Shown one piece after another: positions 5,267 through 57,762 of a DNA stretch of 64,000 nt; the first letter of the stretch is position 1; each line of letters starts with the position of its first letter. The notes under the pieces were generated by a model that was not told the origin of the DNA, made no database searches, and was given only the letters and a program-made list of their open reading frames with translations. The stretch lies in the NCBI GenBank assembly GCA_963766885.1, contig CAVYBO010000001.1, positions 68,352-132,351 of the forward strand, given 5' to 3'. Made by a program: the position numbers and the translations under genes. The stretch is from an uncultured bacterium. Lineage in GTDB: Bacteria; Patescibacteriota; Minisyncoccia; Phycocordibacterales; CAIRYW01.

Positions 5267-8200
5267 ATGACAGAAGAAAATCAGCAAAAAAGCGAGCATG
5301 CAAAGCGCGAGGAAAGGATTCTTGAATTTTGGAATAAAAACCAGATTTTCCAAAAAACCTTGGATAAAAAACCTCAAAAAGGCAATTTTGTTTTTTATGA
5401 AGGCCCTCCTACGGCCAACGGCAAGCCCGGAATTCACCACCTTGAGGCCAGGGCTTTTAAGGATGTAATACCTCGATACAAAACAATGCAGGGATATTTT
5501 GTGCGCCGCAAAGCTGGTTGGGACACGCATGGATTGCCAGTTGAGATTGGAATTGAAAAAGAACTTGGCTTTAAATCCAAAAAAGAGATTGAAGAATACG
5601 GCATCGCAGCTTTCAATAAAAAATGCAAAGAAAGCGTTTTTAAGTACATTGATCTTTGGAGCAATTTTACCGATAGAATCGGCTATTGGCTCGACAAAAA
5701 AAATGCCTATTTTACTTTTGATTCAAATTATATTGAATCGCTTTGGAATATTTTCAAGAAAATTGATGATCAGAAACTTCTGTACAAAGATTACAAAGTT
5801 GTGCCATGGTGTCCGCGCTGCGGGACAACTTTATCGAGCCACGAGCTCGCTCAGGGCTACCAAGAAGACAAAGATTTGTCTGTGTATGTGAAGTTCAGAA
5901 TTGTAGAGCCTCAGAGCCACAGTCTTCGTTCGCCGTTGGCGAAATCGCCTGTGTCGTCTTCGGCTCTTACAGATTCCGAGGTTAGTGATAAGTCGAGGAT
6001 GTTACGCGCGACTTTTGCGGAGCAAAACGAAGCGCGTGACTCTGAGACTACCCAAACGTACTTACTCACATGGACAACAACACCGTGGACGCTTCCGGGA
6101 AACGTTGCTTTGGCTGTGGGAGAAAAGATTGATTATGTAAAAATAAAAATTGCCGAAGAGTTTTTGATTTTGGCTAAAGATCGACTTGCTGTTATCGTGG
6201 GCGAGTATGAAATTATTGAAGAAATAAAAGGCAAAGATTTAGTTGGTCTTGAATACGAGCCTGTTTATCCATTTATCACAGGCAACGAAAATTCTTTTAA
6301 AGTATACGCAGCTGATTTTGTAAACACAGAGGATGGCACAGGAATTGTGCATATTGCGCCGATGTATGGAGCAGACGACTTTGAACTTGGTAACAAAAAC
6401 AATCTTCCAAAACAGCATCTTGTAAACGAAGATGGAACTTTCAAAAGCGAAGTGGAATTTTTGGCTGGAAGGTTTGTCAAAGACGAAGAAACTGCGGTGG
6501 AAATAATCAAAGATTTGGCTCACAGAGGGTTGCTTTTCAAAAAAGAAAAGCATACTCACCAATATCCGCATTGCTGGAGATGCGGCACGCCGCTTATTTA
6601 TTTTGCCCGCGATTCTTGGTACATAAAAATGTCAGCGCTTCGGGAAAAATTGGTTTCTGAAAATGAAAAAATAAACTGGGAGCCGGAATATATCAAAGAA
6701 GGCAGGTTTGGCGAATGGCTCAGGGAAGTCAAAGACTGGGCAATTTCTCGCGAGCGATATTGGGGTACGCCGCTGCCCATCTGGTTTGGTGAAGATGGAG
6801 AAAAACTGGTAGTGGACTCGATTGAAACTCTTAAAAAATACACCAAAAAATCCGGCAATAAATATTTTTTAATGCGTCATGGAGAAGCGGAGCATAATAT
6901 TGAAGGTGTTTTTAGTTCTGACGAAGAAAAAGTTCATCACTTGACGGAAAATGGCACGAAACAAGCAGAAAAAACTGCCGGGAAATTAAAAAAAGAAAAA
7001 ATAGATTTGATAATTTATTCTCCTCTGACTCGCGCCAAAGAAACAATGGAAGAGGTGAAAAAAATTTTAGGAGAAAATATTTTGGCGGTTGAAGATAAGA
7101 GGGTAACCGAAGAAATATTTGCAGGGCTCTCTGGTATGAAAGAAAAAGAGTTCAAGAATCATTTTCCAACATTTGAAGACAGGCTTCACAATAGCGTGCA
7201 GAACAGCGAGACTCTTTTGGAAACAAAAAACAGAGTTGGAGAATTTTTGTATGATCTTGAAAATAAATATCAGAATAAAAATATACTGGTTGTTACTCAT
7301 GGCGGCCCTATATCGCTTATGTTTTGCGCATCAAATGGTCTTCTTGAAAAAGATATAAAAGAAAATTATAGCGGCAATTTCATAATGCCGGGTGAATATA
7401 CGGAATTAAAATTTACTCCGCTTCCGCACAATGAAAACTTTGAGCTTGATTTGCATAAGCCTTTTATTGATGAAATTGAACTTGTGTCAGATTCCGGAAA
7501 ACTTTTGAAGAGAATCAAAGAAGTTTGCGATGTGTGGTTTGATTCTGGATCAATGCCGTTTGCGCAGGATCATTATCCTTTTGAGAATAAAGAATTGATT
7601 GATAAAAATGGCGGATATCCAGCGGATTTTATTTCTGAAGCCATAGATCAAACCCGCGGATGGTTTTATACGCTTCATGCGGTTGGTGTGTTGACAGGCA
7701 AAGGCAATGCATACAAAAACGTGATTTGCTTGGGACATTTGCTCGATAAAAACGGCAAAAAGATGAGCAAGTCTTTGGGTAATGTGGTGGATCCGTGGGT
7801 AGAGATGGATAAATTCGGCGCGGATGCAATCAGGCTTTGGATGTATTCTGTAAATCAGCCAGGAGAGAGCAAAAATTATGATGAGAAGACAGTAGATGAG
7901 ATTATAAAAAAGAATTTCAATCTGCTCTCAAACGTTTACGCTTTTTATGAACTCTATAGAGATAAAGATTTGGAGACTAATGCTGCGCCAAAATCCAAGA
8001 ACGCTTTGGATATGTGGATTTTGGCGCGTTTGAATCAATTAATAAATGAGGGCACAAATTACCTTGAAGACTACAGACTGCTTCAGCCTGTGCGAATGCT
8101 CAAAGAATTTATCGAAGATCTTTCTACTTGGTATTTGAGAAGGTCTCGCGAGAAAATTCGCGAAGGCGACAAGAATGCAAAGCAGTGTTTGTATTTTGTG

Positions 8201-21794: not shown

Positions 21795-22902
21795 TTATTC
21801 CTCAGGCTTTTCGTCTTCGATTTCGGCAGGAGTTGGTTTGGCACTAAATCCTCCATCTTTCATAAATTTGCGGATCTTGCCCAATAGTTCATCTGCAATT
21901 TTTTTGTTGTCTCTAAGAAACTGGCGAGTAGCGTCATATCCTCGGCCTAAAATCAGATCATTATATTTGTATGAGTTGCCGCTTTTTTGCAGAAGTCCCA
22001 TCTTTTCTCCTAGTGCCATAATTTCTCCTTCGCGCGAAATGCCTTCGTTGTACATTAGGTCAAATTCTGTTTGCTTGAAAGGCGCAGCTACTTTGTTTTT
22101 GACAACCTTCACTCTTACACGGCCGCCCATTATTTCATCTCCTTTTTTGATTTGTGCGATTCTGCGAATATCCAAGCGCACGGAAGTGTAGAACTTAAGT
22201 GCTTTTCCGCCAGGAGTTGTTTCTGGATTACCAAACATCACGCCAATTTGCATTCTGATTTGATTTATAAAAATAACAATTGTTTTGGAGTGGGCAACAA
22301 TAGCTGTCAGTTTTCGCAAAGCCTGAGACATAAGGCGGGCTTGTTTGCCCACATGGTACGCTCCCATATCGCCTTCAATTTCATCTTTTGGAGTAAGTGC
22401 TGCTACTGAGTCAATAACAATGACATCTATTTTTCCGCTTCGAACAAGTGACTCCACAATTTCAAGTGCTTGTTCTCCTGTGTCTGGCTGAGAAATCAAA
22501 AGCTCATCAAGTTTGACTCCGAGACTGTCCTGCATACTGAGGATCCATTGCGTGCTCTGCGTCAATAAAAGCGCAGATGCCACCGAGCTTTTGAGCTTCG
22601 GCAATTACGTGGAGCGACAGGGTTGTTTTGCCGGAAGATTCCGGGCCAAAAATTTCTATGATTCTGCCGCGGGGAAGTCCGCCGACGCCAAGCGCTTCAT
22701 CGAGGCCGATTGATCCTGTGGAAATTGCGTTTACATCAACTCGTGGCTTCTCGCCAAGCTTCATTATGGCGTCATCGCCGAATTTTGTTTTGATTGCTTT
22801 GATGGTGTCTTCAATTCCAGATTTTCTGACATCTTTGGCGCTGATTTTTTCGGTTGCTTTTTCTCCTGCTTTGCTTTCTGTTTTTATTTTTTTCTTTTGC
22901 AT
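21795..22902 (-). CDS. recA: RecA recombinase, split into two ORFs by an apparent +1 frameshift near 22545
   Basis: The N-terminal ORF ends ...[21 protein letters not shown]. The downstream ORF continues ...[23 protein letters not shown] in the +1 frame. Removing one G in tatgcaGGacag restores [16 protein letters not shown], which matches the RecA consensus DPxYAxxLGV. Confidence 0.85.
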
Positions 22903-33788: not shown

Positions 33789-34067
33789 ATGCCTTTCTTA
33801 AAAAATATTACTAGATTTTTTTCAGGAATAATTTTTTCCTTCATAACAATATATATCATTTTTTTTATATTTAAATATGGAGATTTTGAGGAATATATTT
33901 TTTTTGCGGTTCCTTTTGTTATATCACTTATTTTATATTTTCTTGATAACAAATTAACCGGCAATGTTAAGAAGTCACCGTATTTATTGTCAGTACTTTT
34001 TTATTTTATTATTTGTTTCAGTCTTCTTTTTTATGCTCTGGCCCATATAGGTCCAATTCATTTCTAA
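33789..34067 (+). CDS. small hydrophobic membrane protein (3 predicted TM)
   Basis: 92 aa, strongly hydrophobic (IIFSFITIYIIFFIF..., FFAVPFVISLILYFL..., LLSVLFYFIICFSLLFYALAHIG). Confidence 0.3.
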   Translation: MPFLKNITRFFSGIIFSFITIYIIFFIFKYGDFEEYIFFAVPFVISLILYFLDNKLTGNVKKSPYLLSVLFYFIICFSLLFYALAHIGPIHF

Positions 34068-34118
34068 AATTTATAAAGTATAAAACCAATTGCTAAATAA
34101 ATTTGCTTGTGGTAATTT

Positions 34119-34945
34119 TTGGGCAGAAAGAGTCGGTTCAAACCAACCGGATTAATTATGAAAATTCGCACAGCGCTGGTTTCGGTCAGCGACAAAACAG
34201 GATTGGTTGATTTCGTCAAAGAGCTGGAGAAAATGGGTGTCTGGGTGATTTCCACCGGTGGCACGAAAAAGGTCTTGCGCGACGCGGGACTTGTTGCCAC
34301 AGATATTGCGGTCTTCACAGGATCACCGGAAATTCTGGATGGCAGGGTGAAAACTCTTCACCTCAAAGTTCACGGCGGTCTGCTTTTCCGGCGCGGCAAT
34401 GCCGAGCACGAACAGGAGGCGGCTGAAAATGGCATCAAGCCGATTGACCTGGTGGTCGTGAACCTCTATCCGTTTGAGCAGACGGTCTCCAAACCGGACT
34501 GCACCGAAGAAGATGCGATCGAGAACATCGACATCGGCGGACCGTCGATGCTTCGGAGCGCTGCCAAAAACTTCGAGAGTGTCACGGTCGTGTCTGATCC
34601 GAAAGATTACGGGCGCGTGCTTGCCGAAATGAAAGCAAACGATGGCGATACTACACCTCAGTTTCGGTGGTATTTGGCCAAAAAGGTTTTTATGACCACC
34701 GCGCTCTACGACCTCTCGATCTTTTGTTACTTTGCGTGGGGGAGAATCCTCACATCAATTCAAGAGATCAAGATCAAGATGGACAACTGGCTGGAACATG
34801 CAGTGGGTCCTCACGATCACGTGTAGGTAAGGCAGAGCAATCTGCCAATTTTTTTTGCAAAAATTTATTTTATATACCACAAGGGCATTTCTGTTTTTAT
34901 AAAAAATTCCAGAACGGGTGTTCTGGTTTTGTGTGTTGCGGCTAA
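34119..34945 (+). pseudogene. purH: purH remnant: the N-terminal IMP cyclohydrolase (MGS-like) domain only, then a frameshift and truncation. GC-rich island.
   Basis: [33 protein letters not shown]...[18 protein letters not shown]...[14 protein letters not shown]...[19 protein letters not shown]...[13 protein letters not shown] is canonical PurH residues 1 to about 215. A GENPH motif (start of the AICARFT domain) appears only in a second frame, as [10 protein letters not shown] in ORF 34667..34945, then decays. The convergent purM ends here, so the AICARFT domain is absent. Confidence 0.5.
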
Positions 34946-35937
34946 GCGGCTGGGTAGTCGAAGTGTCCGTGTGGTGATTCGATCCGGACTTTGTTTGGTC
35001 CGGGGCCGAGCTTCGGTACGACTCTTCCGACGATTTGGGCATCGACGCCTTCTTCTTTTGACATTTCAATGCACTCGTCGGCGACACCTTTGCTTGGTGT
35101 GATCAATTCCAAGCGATGACCCATGTTGTACACTTCGTGCATTTCTTGCCACGACGTTCCGGCTGCTTGGATTGCCCGGAAGATCGCTGGTGTAGGGAAT
35201 AGATTGTCTTTGACGTACCTATTTCCGTGAGCACCGAACTTCATAATCTTGGTTTGTCCGCCGCCGGAGCAGTGGATAATTCCGTGAATATGCTTCGGGG
35301 ATATGTTCCACAGGATCTTTTTGACCAATGGCAGGTATGTCCGCGTCGGCGAAAGTAGTGCTTCTGCAATCGTAAAAGTTGTTCCCGGCAGGTTGTCTCC
35401 AAGCCGAAACTTTCCACGATATTGAAGGCTTGGCTTGAGCTGCGGTGCATACGTTTCCGTGTAGCGCCGATAGCAGCGAGACAACAGATCAGGAATTGCA
35501 CTGGTTAAGCCGTTGGAACCGATACTGGAATTTTCCCGCTCTTCCCACTTTGCTTTTCCGGTGGAACTGAAGCCTACAATGTAATCGCCCGGTACCATTC
35601 TACCGGCATCGATGATTGCCTTTTTCAGCAGCGAAAAGTACACGCTGTTGCCGACGTCAAACGTCCGCACGTTGTTTCCAACGCTTGCACTTTCGCCTCC
35701 GCAAAACTCGACTGGGATGCCGTAAGACTGAAGCATCTCGCAGAGTTTTTGAACGCGATCGATCAATCCGGCTATGAGTTCGGCGGCACGCTTTTTTCCA
35801 AAATAGAGCGTGTTGATGCCGATAGTCTGATTGATAAGCAAATCCTTAAGTGCGCCGATGCAGCCAACGTCGTCGAGATTCATCACGGCAGCATTGATTG
35901 CTGTGTTGATGGCCAGCTCCAGGTTGCCGGTCAACAT
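34942..35937 (-). CDS. purM: PurM-family protein (AIR synthetase-like, divergent), possibly 5'-frameshifted. GC-rich island.
   Basis: AINAAVMNLDDVGCIGA (compare LVAMCVNDL..GAEP), CGGESASVG (compare GGETAEMPG), LLSPTRTYLPLVKKIL (compare LAPTRIYVKSVLELI) and IIHCSGGGQTKI (compare AHLTGGG). A PurM-like N-terminal segment, YEARGVSS...LHADTAGSI, is readable only in a different frame upstream (35940-36125). Confidence 0.55.
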   Translation of the reverse strand: MLTGNLELAINTAINAAVMNLDDVGCIGALKDLLINQTIGINTLYFGKKRAAELIAGLIDRVQKLCEMLQSYGIPVEFCGGESASVGNNVRTFDVGNSVYFSLLKKAIIDAGRMVPGDYIVGFSSTGKAKWEERENSSIGSNGLTSAIPDLLSRCYRRYTETYAPQLKPSLQYRGKFRLGDNLPGTTFTIAEALLSPTRTYLPLVKKILWNISPKHIHGIIHCSGGGQTKIMKFGAHGNRYVKDNLFPTPAIFRAIQAAGTSWQEMHEVYNMGHRLELITPSKGVADECIEMSKEEGVDAQIVGRVVPKLGPGPNKVRIESPHGHFDYPAA

Positions 35938-36275
35938 GAAGACAAGAGCTGCAAGGGAAGGAATGCTTCCTGCGGTGTCTGCATGGAGACCTCTGGCTCT
36001 AGTTGGGTCACGTGGATCTTGCAGGATTTTGCAAAAAGCAGTCGGGGCAATTCCCTTATACAGTTTTGCAATAGCGGCGTGTACTTCGCCTTTTTGAGAC
36101 GAGACACCGCGAGCTTCGTAGTTTGATGTTGTGTTTATATAATTTGCGCCGTTACTATTTCTAGCTCTGGCGACTTGGTTGAGTTAAATTTAGCCGCTTT
36201 CAAAGGGCTTTGAGTTGAATATTACTCAATTAAAATATTTTGTCTATTATAAAAAATACCCCTTCAACAAAATGT

Positions 36276-36485
36276 TTATGGGGTTTTGTGTTCGGCAGCG
36301 GATTTTGCCAAAAGGTACGATGTTGGTCCGATTGCGACAATAAAAATTACTTGGTAGCCGAGCCAGTCGAACCAGCTATAGTTTTTGGGCATTTTTGTCA
36401 AAAGGGTCAGATACAAGAAAACAATAGTTGGGGTTGATGTAATTATCAGGGCAACGAAAAAGAACAGCCAATTCGGAATTTTCAT
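36276..36485 (-). CDS. small membrane protein (2 TM), tentative
   Basis: 69-aa hydrophobic ORF. A competing plus-strand ORF overlaps it. Confidence 0.2.
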   Translation of the reverse strand: MKIPNWLFFFVALIITSTPTIVFLYLTLLTKMPKNYSWFDWLGYQVIFIVAIGPTSYLLAKSAAEHKTP

Positions 36486-36507
36486 ACGACATATTTATAG
36501 CACTTAA

Positions 36508-36535
36508 TTGACATTTTTCAATAAAAAAGTAAACT
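36508..36535 (+). promoter_or_regulatory. putative sigma70-type promoter of the rplJL operon, with ~150-nt structured leader
   Basis: TTGACA, a 16-nt spacer, then TAAACT. The leader 36540-36690 contains hairpins, consistent with an L10 autoregulatory leader. Confidence 0.3.
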
Positions 36536-36690
36536 GATTTTACCAAGGCCAAAGACAATAGGATCTGCCTAAGACCAGATTAAAAGCCAAAAGCATCCTA
36601 TCGAGGTAAAGTAAAAGTAATTTATACACTTTTACTTCTCAACTTTATTCGGCCCTTGAGGGTCGATTTTTAGTTTAAAAAAGAAACTAT

Positions 36691-39144: not shown

Positions 39145-40077
39145 GCTCCCTACACAGATGTTACGAAACCATCAATTTAAACGGGAAACATAAAGCCTCT
39201 TTATTGAGTGTTATATGAATCTCCCGCTTAAAAGCGGGTTTTTTGATTCCGAAAGGAATCATTCGCCTTTGGCGAATTACCGATTGACCACACTTTGATA
39301 AATAAATCCTGCCACGACGCTTTTGGTCTTTTGCCCTGTTAGGCAATTGACTGATCGAGGTCTTTTCTTGTCGGAGGCAGATGTTGCGCTGAATTTTTCG
39401 GCGCAACAAATCTCATAAAATTTTTCTCAAGAGAATTTTATGAGGCAGGTAAATATTCCAAAATTAATTTTTTGGAATATGTAGTAAGCAAAACAATTAG
39501 TGAATTAAAAATTAACCATTTTTAATTCACAGGCGGTTTTTACATTTCCTAATAGGAAATGTAAGAGCATATGGTGGATGCCTTGGCTTCAAAAGGCTAT
39601 GAAGGACGCAGCAAAGCAGCGATATGCTTCGGGGAGGTGCCTAGCAACCTTTGATCCGGAGATTTCCGAATGGGGAAACCCAATCAAACAAGATTTGATT
39701 GTTCTATGAGTAACATCATAGTTCGCGCACACAGGGAAGTAAAACATTTCAGTACCTGTAGGAATAGAAACTAAACAGTATTCCGCGAGTAGCGGCGAGC
39801 GAAAACGGATGAGCCCAAACTGGCATTTTTTAATCTTGTTCCGCATTTTGCGTAATGAGATTAAAAACTGTCAGGGTTGCAAGGCGGCAAATATCTTTAA
39901 TGATGAAAAGTTACAAATTATTTTGTTAGGAGAATTTGCTGGAAAGCAAAGCCCTAGAGGGTAACAGACCCGTATCCGAAAACGAAATAACTTTTATTGC
40001 CGTTCTTAAGTACCTCGAGACACGAGTGGCTCGGGGGAATCTGCCGGAACTAACCGGTAAGGCTAAATACTTTTGAA

Positions 40078-40123
<46 letters not shown>

Positions 40124-41576
40124 GTTGAGGGGAGTGAAATAGATCTGAAACCATATGCTTACAAGGAGTCAGAGCGGATATTTATATCCGTCATGGCGTG
40201 CCTATTGAAGAATGAGCCAACGAGTTAATGTATAAAGCTGGCTAAAGGCGAGAGCCTGGAGCCACAGGGAAACCAAGTGTGAATAGCGCGAAATATAAGT
40301 TTTATACATTAGACCCGAAGCCAGAGCGAGCTACCCATGTGCAGGGTGAAGTTTATCGAAAGATAGATGGAGGCCCGAACCGTTGAGCCGTTCAACACTC
40401 TCGGATGACATGTGGGTTGAAGTGAAAAGCTAATCGAGCCTGGTAATAGCTGGTTCTCTCCGAAACAGCTTTTGGGCTGGCGTTGCGTGATCCTTCCGGG
40501 GGTAGAGCACTGGAAGGACTTGACAGGGAGAAATCTCGCAAGTCCTATCAACCTCCGAATACCGGAAATTTATAACGCAGCAGTTAGACCGTGGGGGCTA
40601 AGCTCCACTGGTCAAAAAGGGAAGAGCCTAGATCTCAAGTTAAGGTCCCTAAATCATAGCTAAGTGCATCACAAGGAGGTGAAGTTTCTCAGACACTGAG
40701 GAGGTTGGCTTAGAAGCAGCCATCCTTTAAAGAAAGCGTAACAGCTCACTCACTTAGAGACTTTGCACCGAAGATAATCGGGGCTAAAGCTATGTACCGA
40801 AACTGAGGGCTTTCAATTTCTTCGGAAATTGGGAGCGGTAGGAGAGTATTCGCATCTGCACTGAAGGCAAAGGGGTGACCCATGCTGGAGCGTTGCGAAG
40901 TAAGAATGTTGGCACAAGTAACCGCAATTAGAGTGAGATACTCTAACGTCGAAAGATCAAGGTTTCCTTGGCGATGAAGATCAGCCAAGGGTTAGTCGGT
41001 CCTAAGGGAATGGTGAGAACCGAACTCGATGGACACACGGTTAATATTCCGTGACTCATTGCATTGCGATGGAGGGACGAAGTTTAGTATGTATAGCGCA
41101 TTATGGATTTGCGTTTTCTTTTTAAGGATCAAGTGTAGGTAAATCCGCATTTGCCCGCAAGGGACATCCAAGAAAGGCGAGTAAGCTTGCAGCAATGCAG
41201 GCGAAGTATACAAAGCAAGCTTCCGAGAAAAACTTCTAAGCTTCAGATGCAATTGAACCGTACCGCAAACCGACACAGGTGATCAGGGCGAGTAGCCCAA
41301 GACGAACGAGTGAGAGGTCCTCAAGGAACTCGGCAAAAAAGCGACCGTAACTTCGGAATAAGGTCTGGCCACCGCAAGGTGGCCCGCAGCTAAAGTTTCT
41401 CTGGCGACTGTTTACCAAAAACACAGCTCCCTGCGAACTCGCAAGAGGATGTATAGGGGGTGACACCTGACCGATGCCAGAAGGTCAAACAGCGGCGTCT
41501 TTATATAGCAATATATAAAGGTGACTGTTGTAAGCCCTGGTGAATGTCGGCGATAACTATAATCGTCCTAAGGTAG

Positions 41577-42264
41577 GATTGCTGCCTTAGTAAAATCTAG
41601 CTATATGCTGGAAGGTCTGAGAATCTCAAGATACTATGGTATAATTATTCCATAGTAAAAAATCTATGAGTGCAGATAATCAGCAGGAAAGGCTAAAAAT
41701 TGAGAGTTGGATTGTTGGATTTACTGATGGAGAAGGTTGTTTCTCTGTAAGTATTATCAAAAACAAGACATCAAAAAGCGGTTGGCAAATATTTCCTGAG
41801 TTTGTAATAACTCAAGGAAAGAAAAGTCTTCCAGCGCTTGAAATATTTTTAAAATATTTCAAATGCGGAAAGATTTTTGTCAATCAAAGATATGATAACC
41901 ATAAAGAACATCTTTATCGTTACTGTGTCAGATCAATTAAAGAATTGCAGGAAATAATAATTCCATTCTTTAAGAAAAATCCTTTAATGACCCATAAACA
42001 GAATGACTTTGTGTTATTTTGCAAAATTATGGAAAAAATTTCTAAAGGAGAACATCTTAAAGTAGAAGGAATAATAAAAATTGCAAAACTGATTGAGCAG
42101 ATGAACCGCAAAAAGAAATCTCGGTTTTTAGAATCCTCAGAGACTACACGCTAGAACAACTATGCTACCGATAGTTTGTAAGATATAGTCCGAACTCATT
42201 GGCGACAATGAGAGTATTATAGAAATATAATACCGCGCTCGAAAGAGCAGTAACAAAATTAAGC
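41577..42264 (+). mobile_element. 23S intron 1 (group-I-like), inserted after CCTAAGGTAG (E. coli ~1917-1926 region), carrying a LAGLIDADG ORF
   Basis: The exon sequence is interrupted between GGTAG and CGAAATTCC, which are contiguous in E. coli 23S. Confidence 0.7.
41666..42154 (+). CDS. LAGLIDADG homing endonuclease (encoded in intron 1)
   Basis: WIVGFTDGEGCFSVSI is the LAGLIDADG motif. 162 aa. Confidence 0.8.
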   Translation: MSADNQQERLKIESWIVGFTDGEGCFSVSIIKNKTSKSGWQIFPEFVITQGKKSLPALEIFLKYFKCGKIFVNQRYDNHKEHLYRYCVRSIKELQEIIIPFFKKNPLMTHKQNDFVLFCKIMEKISKGEHLKVEGIIKIAKLIEQMNRKKKSRFLESSETTR

Positions 42265-42593
42265 GAAATTCCTTGTCAGGTAAGTTCTGACGCGCACGAA
42301 TGGTGTAACGACTGGAGAACTGTCTCGAGGACTTGCTCGGTGAAAATACAATACCGGTGAAGATGCCGGTTACCTGCAGTTAGACGAAAAGACCCCAGAA
42401 GCTTTACTGCAACTTGATATTGCGCTTACGCGTGTGCTGCGTAGCATAGGTGGGAGAGGTTATACGTATGATTTTGGTTGTACGGTACTCAACAGTGAAA
42501 TACCACTCTGTATTTGTGTAAGTGCTAACATTACCGGACAAAACCGGTGAAGGACAGTATCTGGTGGGCAGTTTTAGTGGGGCGCTATCCTTC

Positions 42594-43120
42594 AGGATGC
42601 AAATTTATTTGTATCTTGAATCCGTGGCGCCTCCAGGAAAATCAGACCGAAAAAAATAAAATAGGGGGACTTTGGCGAGCAATCGCCATCGAAAAATCAG
42701 CTATATGCTGGGAAATCTGGTGTATCCGGAGCTACTTATATATTATATAATTAATTATTATAAATAAAATTAATTAATATTAAATATATGAGTGAAAAAG
42801 CACCCGGTGCAGATAATCAGCAGGAAAATAATTTTAGAAGGAATATAGAAGTTTCTAAGCTAATGTTGAAAGAATACGATGAATTAAGAACCGACATAAC
42901 ATGGCTTCAAGATGCAACTCCTGAAGAAATTCAGGAATTAACGAATGCATTAAAAGACTTAAGATCCAAAGTGCAAAAAGTTGGAGAAAAGTACGGACGA
43001 AAGTCATAGAAACTAATCAAAGAAAAATTATTTTCCCCAGAGACTACACGCTGGTCTCCGCAGAAATGTGGATGAATGTATAGTCCGTCCTGCATAGCGA
43101 TATGCAGTTAACAAAGAGCC
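42594..43120 (+). mobile_element. 23S intron 2, inserted between ...GGGGCGCTATCCTTC and TAAAGAGTAACGGAGG, related to intron 1 but with a non-endonuclease ORF
   Basis: Shares with intron 1 the segment ATC(A/T)AGCTATATGCTGG upstream of the ORF, the 21-nt string GTGCAGATAATCAGCAGGAAA at the ORF start, and CAGAGACTACACGCT at the 3' end. Confidence 0.6.
42788..43009 (+). CDS. 73-aa helical hypothetical protein inside intron 2 (not LAGLIDADG)
   Basis: MSEKAPGADNQQENNFRR... shares ADNQQE with the N-terminus of the intron-1 endonuclease (MSADNQQERL), then diverges. Confidence 0.35.
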   Translation: MSEKAPGADNQQENNFRRNIEVSKLMLKEYDELRTDITWLQDATPEEIQELTNALKDLRSKVQKVGEKYGRKS

Positions 43121-43452
43121 TAAAGAGTAACGGAGGAGTCTATTAAGGTCAGCTAGGCGCGAATGGAAACCGTGCCGATAGTGCATTGGCATAAGCTGGC
43201 TTGACTGCAAGACGTGAATGTCGAGCAGATGCGAAAGCAGAGCAAAGTGAACCGACCGTTGGCATTAGATGCTGCGGAAGATTATCTGACAAAAGCTACT
43301 CTGGGGATAACAGGCTAGTTCCGCCTAAGCGTCCATAGCGACGGCGGAGTTCGGCACCTCGATGTCGGCTCATCTTATCCTGGGGGTGGAGAAGCTCCCA
43401 AGGGTTTGGCTGTTCGCCAATTAAAAAGATACGCGAGCTGGGTTCAGACCGT

Positions 43453-43845
43453 TTAGATTCTAACACCCTCCAACCCCCTCTTAATTTAAGAGGGGGCGAG
43501 GGGGAGTTATTGGAATTTAAACAGTCTGAATCGTCGAGAGAGAATTGGGCCGAGAGGTTCAATTCTAATTATTTTTTGCACAAGTTGCAGAAATATACTG
43601 TTATAGAGACAAAGCAGTCAATTAAAGTTGACTGCGTCAACCAAAAATATAAATTCACGGCGGTCGCATAGAGAAATCTGTGCGTACGAAGTTAACTTAT
43701 TCGGAAAAATCTTTGATTGATTATCAAAGACAATACCGAGCTATGTCGAAAGATGTAGTGTAGAGACTAAACGTTAACCATCTTAATTTCGAAAGAAAAA
43801 AGATGATGATATAGTCCATTCCACGAAGTGATTCGTGACAAGAAG
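43453..43845 (+). mobile_element. 23S intron 3, ORF-less, inserted in ...GGGTTCAGACCGT|...|CGTGAGACAGGTTGG
   Basis: About 390 nt with no E. coli counterpart. It contains a GC hairpin CCCCCTCTTAATTTAAGAGGGGG. Boundaries are approximate. Confidence 0.5.
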
Positions 43846-43909
43846 CGTGAGACAGGTTGGTCTCCTATCTACTGCAGGCGTTGATTCTTGAGAGGATTTG
43901 TCCCTAGTA

Positions 43910-44762
43910 GCCCGCAAGGGCCTGCTACTTCACGAAGAAATTTGTGATGACAAATTGGCTAATAACGGTGAAGTCTTCATCATTTTCTGATTCTTTCAGC
44001 AAACACATTGCAACGGTCCAGTTGATGTGCTGAGAATTTACTTGAGGACCAGAAGATGTTAAGATAATACCGTGGGAAGTCGATCTAAAATTGAAAAGAA
44101 AACAGAGTTAGCATATATTGCAGGTTTTCTTGATGGTGATGGAAGCTTGATGCTTCAAATCAAAAAACGCAAAGATGGCAATATCGGCATACGATTTATG
44201 GCCACCATTTGCTTTTATCAAGATATCAGGCATGAAAATGAGCTCAATTGGATAAGAAAAGTTTTGGGTATCGGTTATATTTCCAAAAGAAATGATGGAA
44301 TGACCGAGCTGCGAATAAATGGTTTTAAGCAAGTTGAAGAAATTCTTCAGAATTTGCTGCCATATATTCGATTTAAAAAACTTCAAGGCGATGCATTACT
44401 AAATGCATGCCATATTCTTACCAAAACAAAGTTCAAAATGCTGACACAAAAGCAAATTATGTCTTTGGTTGATTCGATCTTGGTTATACAAAATGAAAAT
44501 TATGTTACTAAGAAGAAAAAAACAAAAGAAGAATTGCTCAAAATTTTAGGTTTGACCCCGTAACGACTGTTTCTGTCTTGCAAATGCAAACAGAATGACT
44601 TCTTGAATACTGGAAAGCTCACTTTTAGTGAACAGGTATCAAGTTGTAATACGCCAACCCTTCATCCATTAAAATATTTTGATGGAAAAGGTGAAGATAT
44701 AGTCTGCTCTCCTAGAAATAGGGGGTACTGTTTAATTCTAAATTTAATGAATTAAATTAAGC
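43910..44762 (+). mobile_element. 23S intron 4, inserted in the sarcin-ricin loop region (CCTAGTA|...|GACGAGAGGACCGG), carrying a LAGLIDADG ORF
   Basis: The exon is interrupted within the AGUACGAGAGGACC motif. Confidence 0.65.
44072..44563 (+). CDS. LAGLIDADG homing endonuclease (encoded in intron 4)
   Basis: LAYIAGFLDGDGSLMLQI. 163 aa. Confidence 0.8.
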   Translation: MGSRSKIEKKTELAYIAGFLDGDGSLMLQIKKRKDGNIGIRFMATICFYQDIRHENELNWIRKVLGIGYISKRNDGMTELRINGFKQVEEILQNLLPYIRFKKLQGDALLNACHILTKTKFKMLTQKQIMSLVDSILVIQNENYVTKKKKTKEELLKILGLTP

Positions 44763-45092
44763 GACGAGAGGACCGGGATGAACTGACCTCTGGTCTATCG
44801 GCTGTTCCGCCAGGAGCACTGCCGAGTAGCTACAGTCGGGATTGGATAAGCTCTGAAAGCATCTAAGAGCGAAGCCAACCTCAAGATTAGGAATCGTTAA
44901 GATCCGTGGGAGATGACCACGTTGATAGGCGTTAGGTGGAAAGCAAGCAATTGCCTGAGCCGAGACGTACTAATTAATCGATCCTATTAGGAAATGTGAA
45001 TGCCGCTTAAGTATGCAAATACTTTGGTTGCTTTGATTACTACAAAAAAAGAAAAGACAAATTTGAAAATTGGAATCTGAATTTTTGCGAAA

Positions 45093-45165
45093 GCACCCCT
45101 AGCTTCAATGTTAGAGCGTCGGCTTCTTAAGCCGAAGGTTGCAGGTTCGAGTCCTGCGGGGTGCG
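45093..45165 (+). tRNA. tRNA-Lys (anticodon CUU), no encoded CCA
   Basis: Hand-folded cloverleaf. Acceptor GCACCCC/GGGGTGC, D stem GCTT/GAGC, anticodon stem TCGGC/GCCGA with loop TTCTTAA, T arm GCAGG-TTCGAGT-CCTGC, discriminator G. Confidence 0.8.
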
Positions 45166-45437
45166 CGCAAAATTATGTTCTTTTGAGTAAAGTAGGCCGG
45201 AAGGTGAATTTGCTTCCCCTGCTTCAATGGCTAGGGTGGTTGGGCACAATTGATAGGATATGCCAATATGTAGGTCTCGCATCGCGGCCCGCTGTTGGAT
45301 TGAGTCCTCTTGTTAGCCACTCATGCGCTGCACCTTGATTACGGGGGCACAATAAGCCTTCCGGCCTTCTTTATTCAGCAGCGCAATCATTTGATTGCGC
45401 TCAGATTCCAGTTTTCAAATTCGCATTAAATATTTTG

Positions 45438-45549
45438 TTCTGGTGATTCGTCGGAGAGGTCACACCTGTTCTCATTCCGAACACAGAAGTTAAGCTCTCT
45501 AGAGGCGATGATACTCTTTATGGAGGGGAAAGTAGCTAGTCGCCAGAAC
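45438..45549 (+). rRNA. rrf: 5S rRNA
   Basis: UUCUGGUGAUUCGUCGGAGAGGUCACACCUGUUCUCAUUCCGAACACAGAAGUUAAGCUCU... is closely similar to Bacillus-type 5S. The terminal helix TTCTGGTG/CGCCAGAA closes the molecule. Confidence 0.85.
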
Positions 45550-52528: not shown

Positions 52529-53888
52529 ATGAACAAAATTCGGATATGGGCGGTAATCCTCATCATTTTTGGCATCTTTTTGGGCTATTTTGTCTATGCA
52601 ACGCAAAAAGGTCACACTCTTGGCGATTTTCCATTCAGATACGGCCTTGATCTTTCAGGCGGAATTCATTTGGTGTATCAGGCAGACGTTTCAAGTATTC
52701 CCGCTTCTGAAATTCAGGACTCAATGGAATCCCTCAGAGACGTTATAGAAAAAAGAGTAAATATTTTTGGCGTTTCGGAACCAGTTGTCCAGACTGAGCA
52801 AGGTTCGCTTAATGGTAAACCAATTTACGAATTGGTTGTTGATCTTCCTGGACTTACAAATTTGAACCAGGCAATCGCAACAATCAAAGCGACTCCGACT
52901 TTGGAATTCAGAATTATGAATCCAAATGCGCAGGCGATAATGGCCGCCGCCACTACGACCGTCAATGCCTCAGCGCTTTTTGGCCCAGCGCTTCTAACAG
53001 GAAAAGATTTGCAAAATGCCCAAGTTATTTTTGATCCATCAACCGGCTTGCCGCAAGTTTCTTTGACATTCAATTCCGAAGGCGCCAAAAAATTTGCTGA
53101 TATCACAACAAACAATGTCGGCAAAGTGCTTGCAATACTTCTTGATGGGTCACCTCTTTCAACTCCTGTAATCAAGGAATCAATAACAGACGGCACGGCT
53201 GTAATCAATGGAAACTTTACAGCCGAGCAGGCGCAGACTTTGGTGCGCAATCTTAAATTACGGAGCGCTTCCTTTGCCAATTTCTCTTATCGGCAGCCAG
53301 TCAATAGGCGCATCCTTGGGCGCTGGCGCATTGTCGGCAAGCGTCAAAGCGGGAATTATAAGCTTCATTATTATCGCCATATTTCTTATCCTTTGGTACA
53401 GATTACCGGGGTTAATTGCCGTGTTGGCTTTGATAATTTATACAGCGCTTAACCTCACGCTTTTTAAACTGATTCCGGTAACACTTACATCTGCCGGACT
53501 TGCGGGATTTATTTTATCCATTGGTATGGCCGTGGATGCCAACATTTTGATTTTTGAGCGAATGAAAGAAGAAATGCGCCGCGGGCTTGATTTGCAAAGC
53601 GCAATCAAAGAAGGTTTTCACCGAGCGTGGCTTTCTATCCGAGATTCAAACCTTTCTTCAATCATTACTGCAATTATTCTTTACTACTTTGCTACTTCAA
53701 CTTTGATCAAAGGCTTTGCACTTGTTTTTGGCATCGGTGTTTTGACTTCAATGTTTACAGCGATTACAGTTTCCAGAACTTTCCTTTTTGCGATCGTGCC
53801 AAAGATGGATGGCAAATTCAGCAGATTCTTTTGGAGCAACGGCGCAGCTTCTGGAAAGTTAGCAGATCAATCTGAGAAAAATAAATAA
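52529..53888 (+). CDS. secD: protein translocase subunit SecD, split by an apparent +1 frameshift near 53258
   Basis: ORF 1 carries ...GGIHLVYQ...GNFTAEQAQTLVRNLK and then degenerates. ORF 2 continues YGALPLPISLIGSQSIGASLGAGALSASVKAG...AVDANILIFERMKEE in the +1 frame. Removing one T in cttaaaTTacgga restores ...LVRNLKYGALPLP, matching the SecD consensus. Confidence 0.8.
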
Positions 53889-53902: not shown

Positions 53903-54814
53903 ATGTTTGTAATCAAATACAGAAAAATATTTTACATTTTAACCGGAATTATCATCATTGCGGCTTTGTACGGTCTTTTTGCGTTTGGTCTCAAGCAAGG
54001 AATTGATTTTCTCGGAGGAGCTCAGGTTGATATGACATATTCAAACACGCCGGATATTTCCAAAATCAAGCCTTCACTCGACAAACTGAACATCGGCGAA
54101 TATTCTCTGGTGCCTTCAGGCAAAAACGACATTCTTCTTCAAACGGAAAATCTTTCTGATGATCAAAGAACCTCTGTGCTTACGGCGCTTTCTTTGGGCG
54201 GTAGCAATCCAAGTGTAAAAAGTTTTGATTCAGTGGGCCCGATTCTTGGCGCAGAACTTCAGAAAAAATCTCTCTATGCGATTATTTTGGTAATAATTGC
54301 AATAGTTTTGTTTATCACTTTTGCCTTTAGAAAAGTTTCAAAGCCAGTATCAAGCTGGAAATACGGCGTAGTTGCAATCATCGCTTTGCTTCATGATGTT
54401 TTGATTCCGGCAGGATTCTTTGCTTACCTCGGCCATTTTTATGGCACCGAGATTGATTCGCTTTTTGTTACAGCTGTGCTTGTAGTCCTGGGCTTTTCTG
54501 TTCACGATACCATTGTGGTGTTTGATCGAACCCGAGAAAATCTGCACATAAACAATACCGAAAAAAATAAAAAAGATTTTGAAACAATCGTTGGTGAAAG
54601 CGTGAGCCAGACATTTGTGAGGTCAATTAATACATCTCTTACAGTGCTTCTTTCGCTTTTGGTTTTGTATTTCTTTGGTCCGGCTTCAACACAGGATTTT
54701 TCCTTGGCGCTTTTAGTTGGAATTTTTGCAGGAACATATTCTTCGATTTTCATAGGTTCACCGCTTCTTGTCACTCTCCAAAAATGGAGTGAAAAGAAAA
54801 ATTCAGCGAAATAA
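53903..54814 (+). CDS. secF: protein translocase subunit SecF
   Basis: 303 aa. GIDFLGGAQV... and the C-terminal 6-TM SecDF fold ...FVTAVLVVLGFSVHDTIVVFDRTREN. Confidence 0.85.
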   Translation: MFVIKYRKIFYILTGIIIIAALYGLFAFGLKQGIDFLGGAQVDMTYSNTPDISKIKPSLDKLNIGEYSLVPSGKNDILLQTENLSDDQRTSVLTALSLGGSNPSVKSFDSVGPILGAELQKKSLYAIILVIIAIVLFITFAFRKVSKPVSSWKYGVVAIIALLHDVLIPAGFFAYLGHFYGTEIDSLFVTAVLVVLGFSVHDTIVVFDRTRENLHINNTEKNKKDFETIVGESVSQTFVRSINTSLTVLLSLLVLYFFGPASTQDFSLALLVGIFAGTYSSIFIGSPLLVTLQKWSEKKNSAK

Positions 54815-55770: not shown

Positions 55771-56066
55771 GGTGCCTACGTCCCCGAAAAGTAGAAGTGC
55801 GGGGATTGTTCATTGAAGTAGAAAAACTCTCATTTCTGTACAAGAAAGTGAGAGGAAATAATAGAGAATTAGTGTAAGTAAAAATCTTTTAAAACATTCA
55901 ATTGTTTTAAAAGATAAATCCAAGTATATTCCAGAATTTAATTTCAGTAGCATGGATCATCAAATGGAAAAAACTAAATAGAAAATGTTTTAATGCGTCT
56001 TCTGTTTTGTTCCGTTCTACAATTCTAAAAAATTGTTTTTCAATTTATTGATTGCAATTTTATTTT

Positions 56067-57599
<1,533 letters not shown>

Positions 57600-57762
57600 A
57601 AAATGAAACTGGCTTTATTGCCAGCGAGTCGATCTTCACACTTTTTGTGATGCTGTATCTCGACAGAATCGAGGTCTTTTTAGAGAAAGTTAATCTCTAT
57701 ATACAGGGAGGAAAGACTCCCGGATTCGAACGGAACAAAACAGAGGATGTAAAAACTCAAAA

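Follow-up and report, generated by a model that had tools for sequence, protein, structure and literature searches.

PurM and IMP cyclohydrolase (IMP, inosine monophosphate; IMPCH) both catalyze ring closures, the former that of the imidazole ring and the latter that of the second purine ring. The isolated N-terminal domain of ATIC, the bifunctional PurH, keeps cyclohydrolase activity. Stand-alone IMPCH-domain genes, designated purJ, have been described in 50 bacterial genomes, mostly together with purV, a gene for the 5-aminoimidazole-4-carboxamide ribonucleotide (AICAR) formyltransferase (AICARFT) only; purJ genes replace the cyclohydrolase function of purH and are frequently found at a distance from other pur genes (PMC6486802, Genome Biol Evol 2019). 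Here we describe an IMPCH-only purH gene and a long-form purM gene without a canonical start codon, which lie side by side near the middle of contig stretch CAVYBO010000001.1, positions 68,352 to 132,351; "the window" hereafter means this whole stretch of 64 kb. Its host looks like a member of the Candidate Phyla Radiation (CPR)/Patescibacteria, given a long 23S rRNA gene with a LAGLIDADG ORF, a group I intron and an unlinked 16S gene (see below), and the nearest protein relatives are named Patescibacteria, Taylorbacteria or Portnoybacteria.

The two genes are convergent, as a sequence-only reading of this DNA had described when it interpreted them as a decaying purine-biosynthesis fragment; purH is on the forward and purM on the reverse strand, with a stop-to-stop spacer of 115 nt. 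The explanation we favor, at a probability of roughly 0.6 for the whole of it, is that the segment consists of two separately transcribed functional genes converging on a spacer that holds two terminators, one gene encoding a purJ-like cyclohydrolase and the other a functional, weakly translated long-form PurM. The features of the locus are these:

34090–34157, forward strand: promoter-like region and 5' leader of the IMPCH gene (TTGCTA, 17 nt, TAATTT, then AGAAAGAG, then a hairpin UCGGUUCAAACCAACCGG at 34133–34150)
34158–34826, forward strand: putative IMP-cyclohydrolase-only gene, 222 aa (truncated purH, purJ-like), with an MGS-like/IMPCH domain and a tail of ∼28 residues
34739–34753, forward strand: GENPH (+2 frame), first motif of the AICAR-transformylase half, abutting a G5 run at 34738–34742
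34831–34856, forward strand: intrinsic terminator of the IMPCH gene from a terminator scan, GGCAGAGCAATCTGCC then a T-run
34900–34926, reverse strand: intrinsic terminator of purM from the same type of scan, CCAGAACACCCGTTCTGG then AATTTTTT, 16 nt after the purM stop
34942–36138, reverse strand: full-length long-form PurM (5-aminoimidazole ribonucleotide (AIR) synthetase family), 398 codons counted from the ATA, of which the annotation covers only those from Met67 (35937) on
36136–36138, reverse strand: ATA codon, taken as the purM translation start and the sole in-frame near-cognate start between the upstream stop and the conserved N-terminus
36139–36246, reverse strand: conserved promoter and 5' leader of purM (TAGACA, 16 or 17 nt, TAATAT, then TTTGAAAG, then a hairpin GUCGCC…GGCGC with a variable loop)

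The purH gene encodes a clean N-terminal IMPCH domain, a point on which the sequence-only reading was right. The annotated open reading frame (ORF) spans 34119–34826 from a TTG that falls inside the promoter/leader region at 34090–34157, and the ATG at 34158 matches the homologues' Met in the alignment. The 13 codons ahead of this ATG are poorly conserved, with a ratio of nonsynonymous to synonymous substitution (dN/dS) of ∼0.5, and overlap the promoter-like region; from the alignment we take ATG 34158 to be the true purH start. Pfam identifies an MGS domain (7e-22) and positions 1–59 only of AICARFT_IMPCHas, and the NCBIfam purH models cover only positions 1–196 of ∼510 (E 6e-81 and 4e-78); a custom PurH profile scores 348 bits. 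The N-terminal 200 residues of bifunctional PurH/ATIC proteins (PDB 9ou7, 4ehi and 1g8m) align with the gene product end to end at 55–67% identity, residues 2–206 of the 9ou7 PurH giving 208 bits, and the stand-alone ForH structure 6nko matches the domain less strongly (E 2.5e-30, 109 bits). Residues K65, Y104, D125 and K137, numbered from ATG 34158, occupy columns that are invariant relative to full-length PurH, as do the SVSDK and STGGT motifs. These correspond to the catalytic residues that we take to be Lys66, Tyr104, Asp125 and Lys137 in human ATIC numbering. The 222-aa protein would thus be expected, from its sequence, to act as a stand-alone IMP cyclohydrolase converting FAICAR (5-formamidoimidazole-4-carboxamide ribonucleotide) to IMP.

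What sets the gene apart from bifunctional PurH/ATIC is that the C-terminal AICAR-transformylase domain (∼310 residues) is missing in every frame. All three forward frames of 34158–34960 were searched with tblastn and the custom PurH profile, and no transformylase domain was found between purH and the purM stop. The in-frame match extends only weakly, to about position 226 of the profile, and the GENPH frame scores -4.5 bits. A remnant of the AICARFT domain was considered and rejected, since nothing was found past position ∼226 by either method. As the sequence-only reading had noticed, GENPH appears only in a shifted frame. No other GENPH occurs in any of the six frames of the 64-kb window, and this one abuts the G5 run; it is therefore likely to be a genuine scar left by the missing transformylase half. 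It is not conserved in the sister contig described below, which has G*GHD at that spot. Adding one G to the run gives FAWGENPH…, but this frame ends at 34945 and shows no transformylase homology. There are two candidates for PurH-linker descent within the tail, an in-frame AVGPH and the exact out-of-frame GENPH.

The closest parallel is purJ. Many stand-alone IMPCH proteins of ∼196 aa were found on long contigs, one of them (on contig L028) encoded next to purD and purE, and the window gene is 59–63% identical to three such proteins (P0128, P0136 and P0189). Like them it has only the MGS-like/IMPCH half with all of the catalytic residues. Typical purJ genes differ in that the protein stops directly after the domain, at ∼196 aa, and in that they co-occur with purV or purP, whereas the window gene carries a tail of ∼28 residues and an out-of-frame GENPH, and no FAICAR-making partner enzyme (purV or purP) was found in the checked parts of the window. 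The tail and the GENPH therefore point to a separate, in-place truncation of a bifunctional purH. The best purH matches other than the sister contig are fragments of 61–67% identity, from which no donor lineage could be identified.

Evidence that the truncated gene is maintained comes from a Logan contig of run ERR11630394 (L004), which derives from a different organism; the purM of the window is also found in this run. The purH proteins of L004 and the window are 79% identical, and the two loci share the same truncation, the tail (one of the two reads GRVMTFVQEVRIKLGTWLEQ…), the upstream genes, the promoter-like region, the leader hairpin, and the junction from AT-rich to GC-rich DNA upstream of purH. 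Over the IMPCH domain the values are dN 0.117 and dS 1.15, a dN/dS of ∼0.10. The region 34090–34157 is ∼90% identical between them, although sequence further upstream cannot be aligned; the leader hairpin UCGGUUCAAACCAACCGG is retained through one U>C and one C>U change, and an identical hairpin and T-run directly follow the purH stop codon in L004. We suggest that 34090–34157 contains the promoter of the IMPCH gene, albeit one whose -10 element is weak by consensus. Because the truncation is common to L004, dN/dS is ∼0.10, and the catalytic residues are intact, the truncated purH behaves as a stand-alone IMPCH gene, and the earlier description of it as undergoing decay is not supported. The history we favor is that a bifunctional purH would have lost its AICAR-transformylase half before the split from the sister species, and that the surviving IMPCH half would since have been retained by selection, like the purJ of other bacteria.

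The purM gene, which the sequence-only reading took to be possibly frameshifted with its N-terminus readable only in another frame, proved to be intact. Translation of 36210–34942 on the reverse strand gives one open frame, from 36183, after a TAA at 36186–36184, to the stop; YEARGVSSQKGEVHAAI…HADTAGSI shares its frame with the annotated Met, and no stop intervenes. A frameshift was accordingly rejected. The ORF list starts each ORF at the first ATG, GTG or TTG after a stop, and it starts purM at Met67 because none of these codons lies upstream after the stop. The 397 residues that follow the ATA align over 5–394 with the long-form PurM-like structures 3mdo (E 8e-84) and 3kiz (E 8e-80), which were deposited as putative phosphoribosylformylglycinamidine cyclo-ligase; the alignment is full-length and the N-terminal Y..RGVS, the HAD.AG, and the DX4GA motifs are shared. 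The window gene is unlike these two in starting with ATA rather than ATG and in having a CPR-specific promoter and leader. Pfam, for which the truncated annotation was used, gives AIRS_C at E 1e-6 and the AIRS N-terminal domain at 17 bits relative to a cut-off of 24.

The PurM protein is 72–75% identical to three homologues (P0002–P0004) and 54–59% identical to those of Patescibacteria and Taylorbacteria; the best match among GTDB species representatives is 58%, in Taylorbacteria. The JGI metagenomes yielded no closer relatives, none exceeding 49% identity. For purM, dN/dS is 0.07–0.1 overall, with the 67 codons upstream of the annotated Met included, and 0.10–0.15 for these 67 codons by themselves, although the ratios are approximate because dS is saturated. 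An independently assembled Logan contig (L006) is identical to the window over purM, its leader, and the ATA. We predict from the alignments that this intact long-form PurM converts formylglycinamidine ribonucleotide (FGAM) and ATP to AIR.

Near-cognate starts are known from Escherichia coli, in which infC and pcnB begin with AUU, and ATA is listed as a start in translation table 11. The window purM resembles infC and pcnB in having a conserved start other than AUG, GUG, or UUG on a gene under purifying selection, with low translation to be expected; it differs in that the codon is AUA rather than AUU and that the host has no anti-Shine-Dalgarno sequence (see below). The sequence TATATAAA is invariant in the window and in contigs L001, L019, and L020, the proteins of which are 72–75% identical. 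The Taylorbacteria homologue on contig L009 has CTATATGAAAACAAC, with an ATG at this position, and we therefore conclude that the ATA replaces an ancestral ATG. In L019 there is an in-frame 15-nt insertion just downstream of the ATA, within the 67-codon stretch. All of the other window genes checked (39/39) start with ATG. In E. coli, AUA initiates at ∼1–2% of the AUG level (doi 10.1101/063800). Our interpretation is that the ancestral purM ATG became ATA, and that translation now most likely begins at AUA, at a low level; actual use of this codon is suggested by its conservation.

The DNA upstream of purM is better conserved than purM itself. From the -35-like TAGACA to the ATA, identity between lineages is 0.82–0.96, compared to 0.68–0.81 for their coding sequences and 0.43–0.71 for the 100 nt further upstream. 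Seven lineages, the window included, carry a signature, GACAAA-N11-16-GTANTAT-N8-20-TTTGAAA, in one copy per locus and in each case directly upstream of long-form purM. It occurs once in the window as against 0.04 occurrences expected by chance; the lineages that carry it are only 54–75% identical in PurM protein. Outside of the window its positions are:

L001, 7970–8016
L019, 7859–7905
L020, 472–518
L007, 9918–9964
L029, 1058–1104
L031, 6379–6425

The signature may be a dedicated promoter, operator, or leader, and purM would be driven from this promoter and leader conserved across CPR lineages. A known riboswitch was rejected, as no Rfam match was obtained at E<=5 in 36139–36530, and the only Rfam match near the purM leader is the L10 leader of the neighboring rplJ. 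RNAalifold on four sequences gave two hairpins with no compensatory changes, and single-sequence folds of the leader do not clearly outperform shuffled sequences (z -2.0 to +0.6).

A short upstream frame lies at 36136–36200 on the reverse strand, beginning at a TTG within TTTGAAAG and ending at a TAA which shares bases with the ATA start (AUAA). This frame is open in four lineages despite indels totaling 12 nt; L009 has AUGA but no start codon. Coupling of this frame to the AUA by termination and reinitiation is a speculation, to which these observations lend weak support. We also note that the Logan contigs L004 and L006 end exactly at the shared terminator hairpin (34830) and at the conserved purM promoter (36245), which suggests that two related strains in ERR11630394 share these short terminator and promoter sequences. 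The sister strain may therefore also carry purM.

The composition of the pair is conspicuous, as the sequence-only reading had observed. The GC content of 34119–36138 is 0.50, compared to a window mean of 0.397 (z ∼3.4), and this is the most GC-rich 2 kb of the window; the top 2-kb intervals, starting at 34001 and 34251, have 0.49–0.50 (mean 0.397, sd 0.029), exceeding even the rRNA genes. At third codon positions (GC3) the values are 0.63 for purH and 0.55 for purM, and 0.19–0.37 for other window genes. This excess of pur genes over host genes, by about +0.2 to +0.3, recurs in every lineage examined (the window, L001, L019, L020, and L009) despite saturated dS; in L009 GC3 is 0.64 for purM (1203–2453) and 0.67 for purD (5544–6854) but 0.33 for rplJ. 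Such a persistent excess is not explained by simple amelioration.

The genomic context is informative about the age of the pair. On the Taylorbacteria contig L009, purM is divergent from rplJ-rplL exactly as in the window, and purD lies 3 kb from purM. Protein identities between the window and L009 are 59% for PurM, 63% for L10, 79% for L7/L12, and 53% for a PG-binding protein; purM has therefore been at this locus for a long time, since it has diverged about as much as the host genes there. L004 has the purH junction in common with the window and L009 the purM-rplJ junction, and the divergence of PurM (59%) is close to that of rplJ (63%), so any transfer would be old. Old acquisition of the pur genes from a GC-richer source is likely and recent transfer is not, and the two genes may be survivors of a larger set of pur genes. 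The suggestion that the segment is a laterally acquired fragment or the last remnant of an ancestral pathway thus survives in part: the composition does look foreign, and a remnant fits the purM–rplJ gene order shared with a Taylorbacteria contig on which purD still lies nearby, but the decay that was part of the suggestion is not borne out. Its premise, that CPR bacteria lack de novo purine synthesis, is not absolute, as related Patescibacteria contigs (such as L007) carry purL, purK, and purD beside this type of purM, all three within 10 kb of it in the Patescibacteria genome GCA_040387635. This purM type also occurs alone among unrelated genes, with no pur neighbors, in L001, L019, L020, L029, and L031. 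We presume that the pair would serve purine nucleotide formation, either in a scattered pathway, with FAICAR coming from another enzyme, or with intermediates from outside the cell.

Several observations count against two functional genes. The IMPCH product reads HLK where all other sequences have HPK, and without an AICAR formyltransferase a cyclohydrolase has no obvious source of substrate. Searches of the window by tblastn with purK, purD, and a purL fragment and by Pfam on ∼30 neighboring ORFs from ∼20.4 kb onward turned up no other pur gene, and the Taylorbacteria purD as a query gave no match on a contig of 283,896 bp and none exceeding 53% identity. Relative to canonical PurM the protein is divergent, scoring 67.8 bits with TIGR00878 (the NCBIfam purM equivalog), below the cut-off of 236.35; because it belongs to a divergent subfamily its PurM activity is only predicted, and we know of no activity assay of a long-form PurM. 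With no canonical start codon, purM expression could be very low or nil. Finally, the assembly has frameshifts in recA and secD, so that indel errors or real gene decay are present somewhere in it.

These observations could be accommodated if both genes were relic pseudogenes, remnants without function of a purine pathway that was lost or failed, and headed for deletion. The loss of the transformylase half with an out-of-frame GENPH fragment, the purM without ATG, GTG, or TTG, the altered HPK, the lack of other pur genes in the checked parts of the window, and the broken recA and secD are all what decay would produce. Yet dN/dS is ∼0.10 for IMPCH and 0.07–0.1 for purM at saturated or near-saturated dS, neither retained domain has an internal stop or frameshift, the same truncated form with its tail persists in the sister species, the ATA start is common to four diverged lineages, and the promoters, leaders, and terminators are more strongly conserved than the coding sequence, and we therefore consider decay unlikely. 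Sequencing errors or a chimeric assembly could in principle lie behind the high-GC block, the truncation of purH, or the absence of a purM start, and the frameshifts in recA and secD, the G5 run at the purH frame change, and the fact that only the window spans the purH-purM junction (L004 and L006 both ending at the shared terminator) lend this some plausibility. It is nonetheless very improbable: a different organism, in L004, has the same AT-rich-to-GC-rich junction and the same truncation, L006 reproduces purM, leader, and ATA exactly, three further lineages in other samples have the ATA as well, purM and rplJ are also neighbors in L009, and correction of the G-run would not bring back the transformylase domain.

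A more serious competitor, albeit still a doubtful one, is that the enzymes are functional but were recruited to a job other than de novo purine synthesis, such as ring closure of scavenged FGAM and FAICAR, or of another ribonucleotide-like substrate as by the IMPCH-like ForH in formycin synthesis. Both enzymes close rings, the IMPCH domain does match the ForH structure, purM has its own conserved promoter signature, and the five contigs listed above have long-form purM without pur neighbors. The IMPCH product is, however, far closer to genuine PurH than to ForH and retains all PurH catalytic residues, purM of this type has purL, purK, and purD around it in L007 and purD near it in L009, and pur genes are often scattered, so that lone genes on contigs of 4–15 kb prove little. 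A more elaborate proposal, which we regard as a long shot, is that the cells keep only these two ring-closing enzymes to finish purines from ring-open intermediates or damaged nucleotides of a host or neighbor, with purM held at trace level by its conserved AUA and a promoter and leader that answer some signal. On balance we prefer a functional purJ-like cyclohydrolase and a functional, weakly translated long-form PurM.

If this preference is right, two likely annotation errors are corrected in a CPR genome, purM having been called 67 codons too short and purH from a TTG inside its own promoter. A gene pair that looks broken in a reduced genome can evidently be under strong selection, which was revealed here by comparison with a sister lineage, and purine-pathway genes are not uniformly absent from Patescibacteria. 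The purH gene would represent a datable in-place conversion of a bifunctional gene into a cyclohydrolase-only one, and purM a natural AUA start conserved across lineages in an organism with no Shine-Dalgarno system. Should the remaining pathway genes be truly missing, the two genes would suggest that intermediates are exchanged between symbiont and host.

The 3' end of the 16S rRNA (57590–57603) reads …GUGGAUUAUUUC rather than …GGAUCACCUCCUUA, and the CCUCC anti-Shine-Dalgarno sequence is therefore missing. Consistent with this, a GGAGG-type site was seen in none of the 40 genes inspected, the upstream regions of which are A/U-rich. The 16S gene (56060–57603) is unlinked from the 23S gene, 12.6 kb downstream of its end, and is followed by tRNA-Ile. 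The 23S gene is 3.9 kb long, compared to a model length of 2.9 kb, with a LAGLIDADG endonuclease ORF inside it at 41666–42154; a group I intron match (43610–43838) and a second LAGLIDADG ORF (44072–44563) lie just past its modeled end. The 5S gene is at 45439–45548, and this part of the window spans 39550–45548.

The recA gene (21795–22902, reverse strand) is split into two overlapping ORFs corresponding to RecA profile positions 3–98 and 98–262. The break, near 22515–22530, is a single extra T in GGACAG[T]CTCGGAGTC, which is not a homopolymer, and its removal restores the frame. The secD gene (52529–53888, forward strand) appears frameshifted, with a P1-head part at 52529–53452 and a SecD_SecF_C part at 53208–53888 in different frames that overlap by 245 nt; a separate secF follows at 53903–54814.

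Upstream of rplJ-rplL, an L10 leader (RF00557, 46.7 bits) is located at 36531–36682 on the forward strand, and it shares one divergent intergenic region of 552 nt with the purM promoter. Between the two lies a hydrophobic ORF of 69 codons (36276–36485, reverse strand) with no Pfam match.

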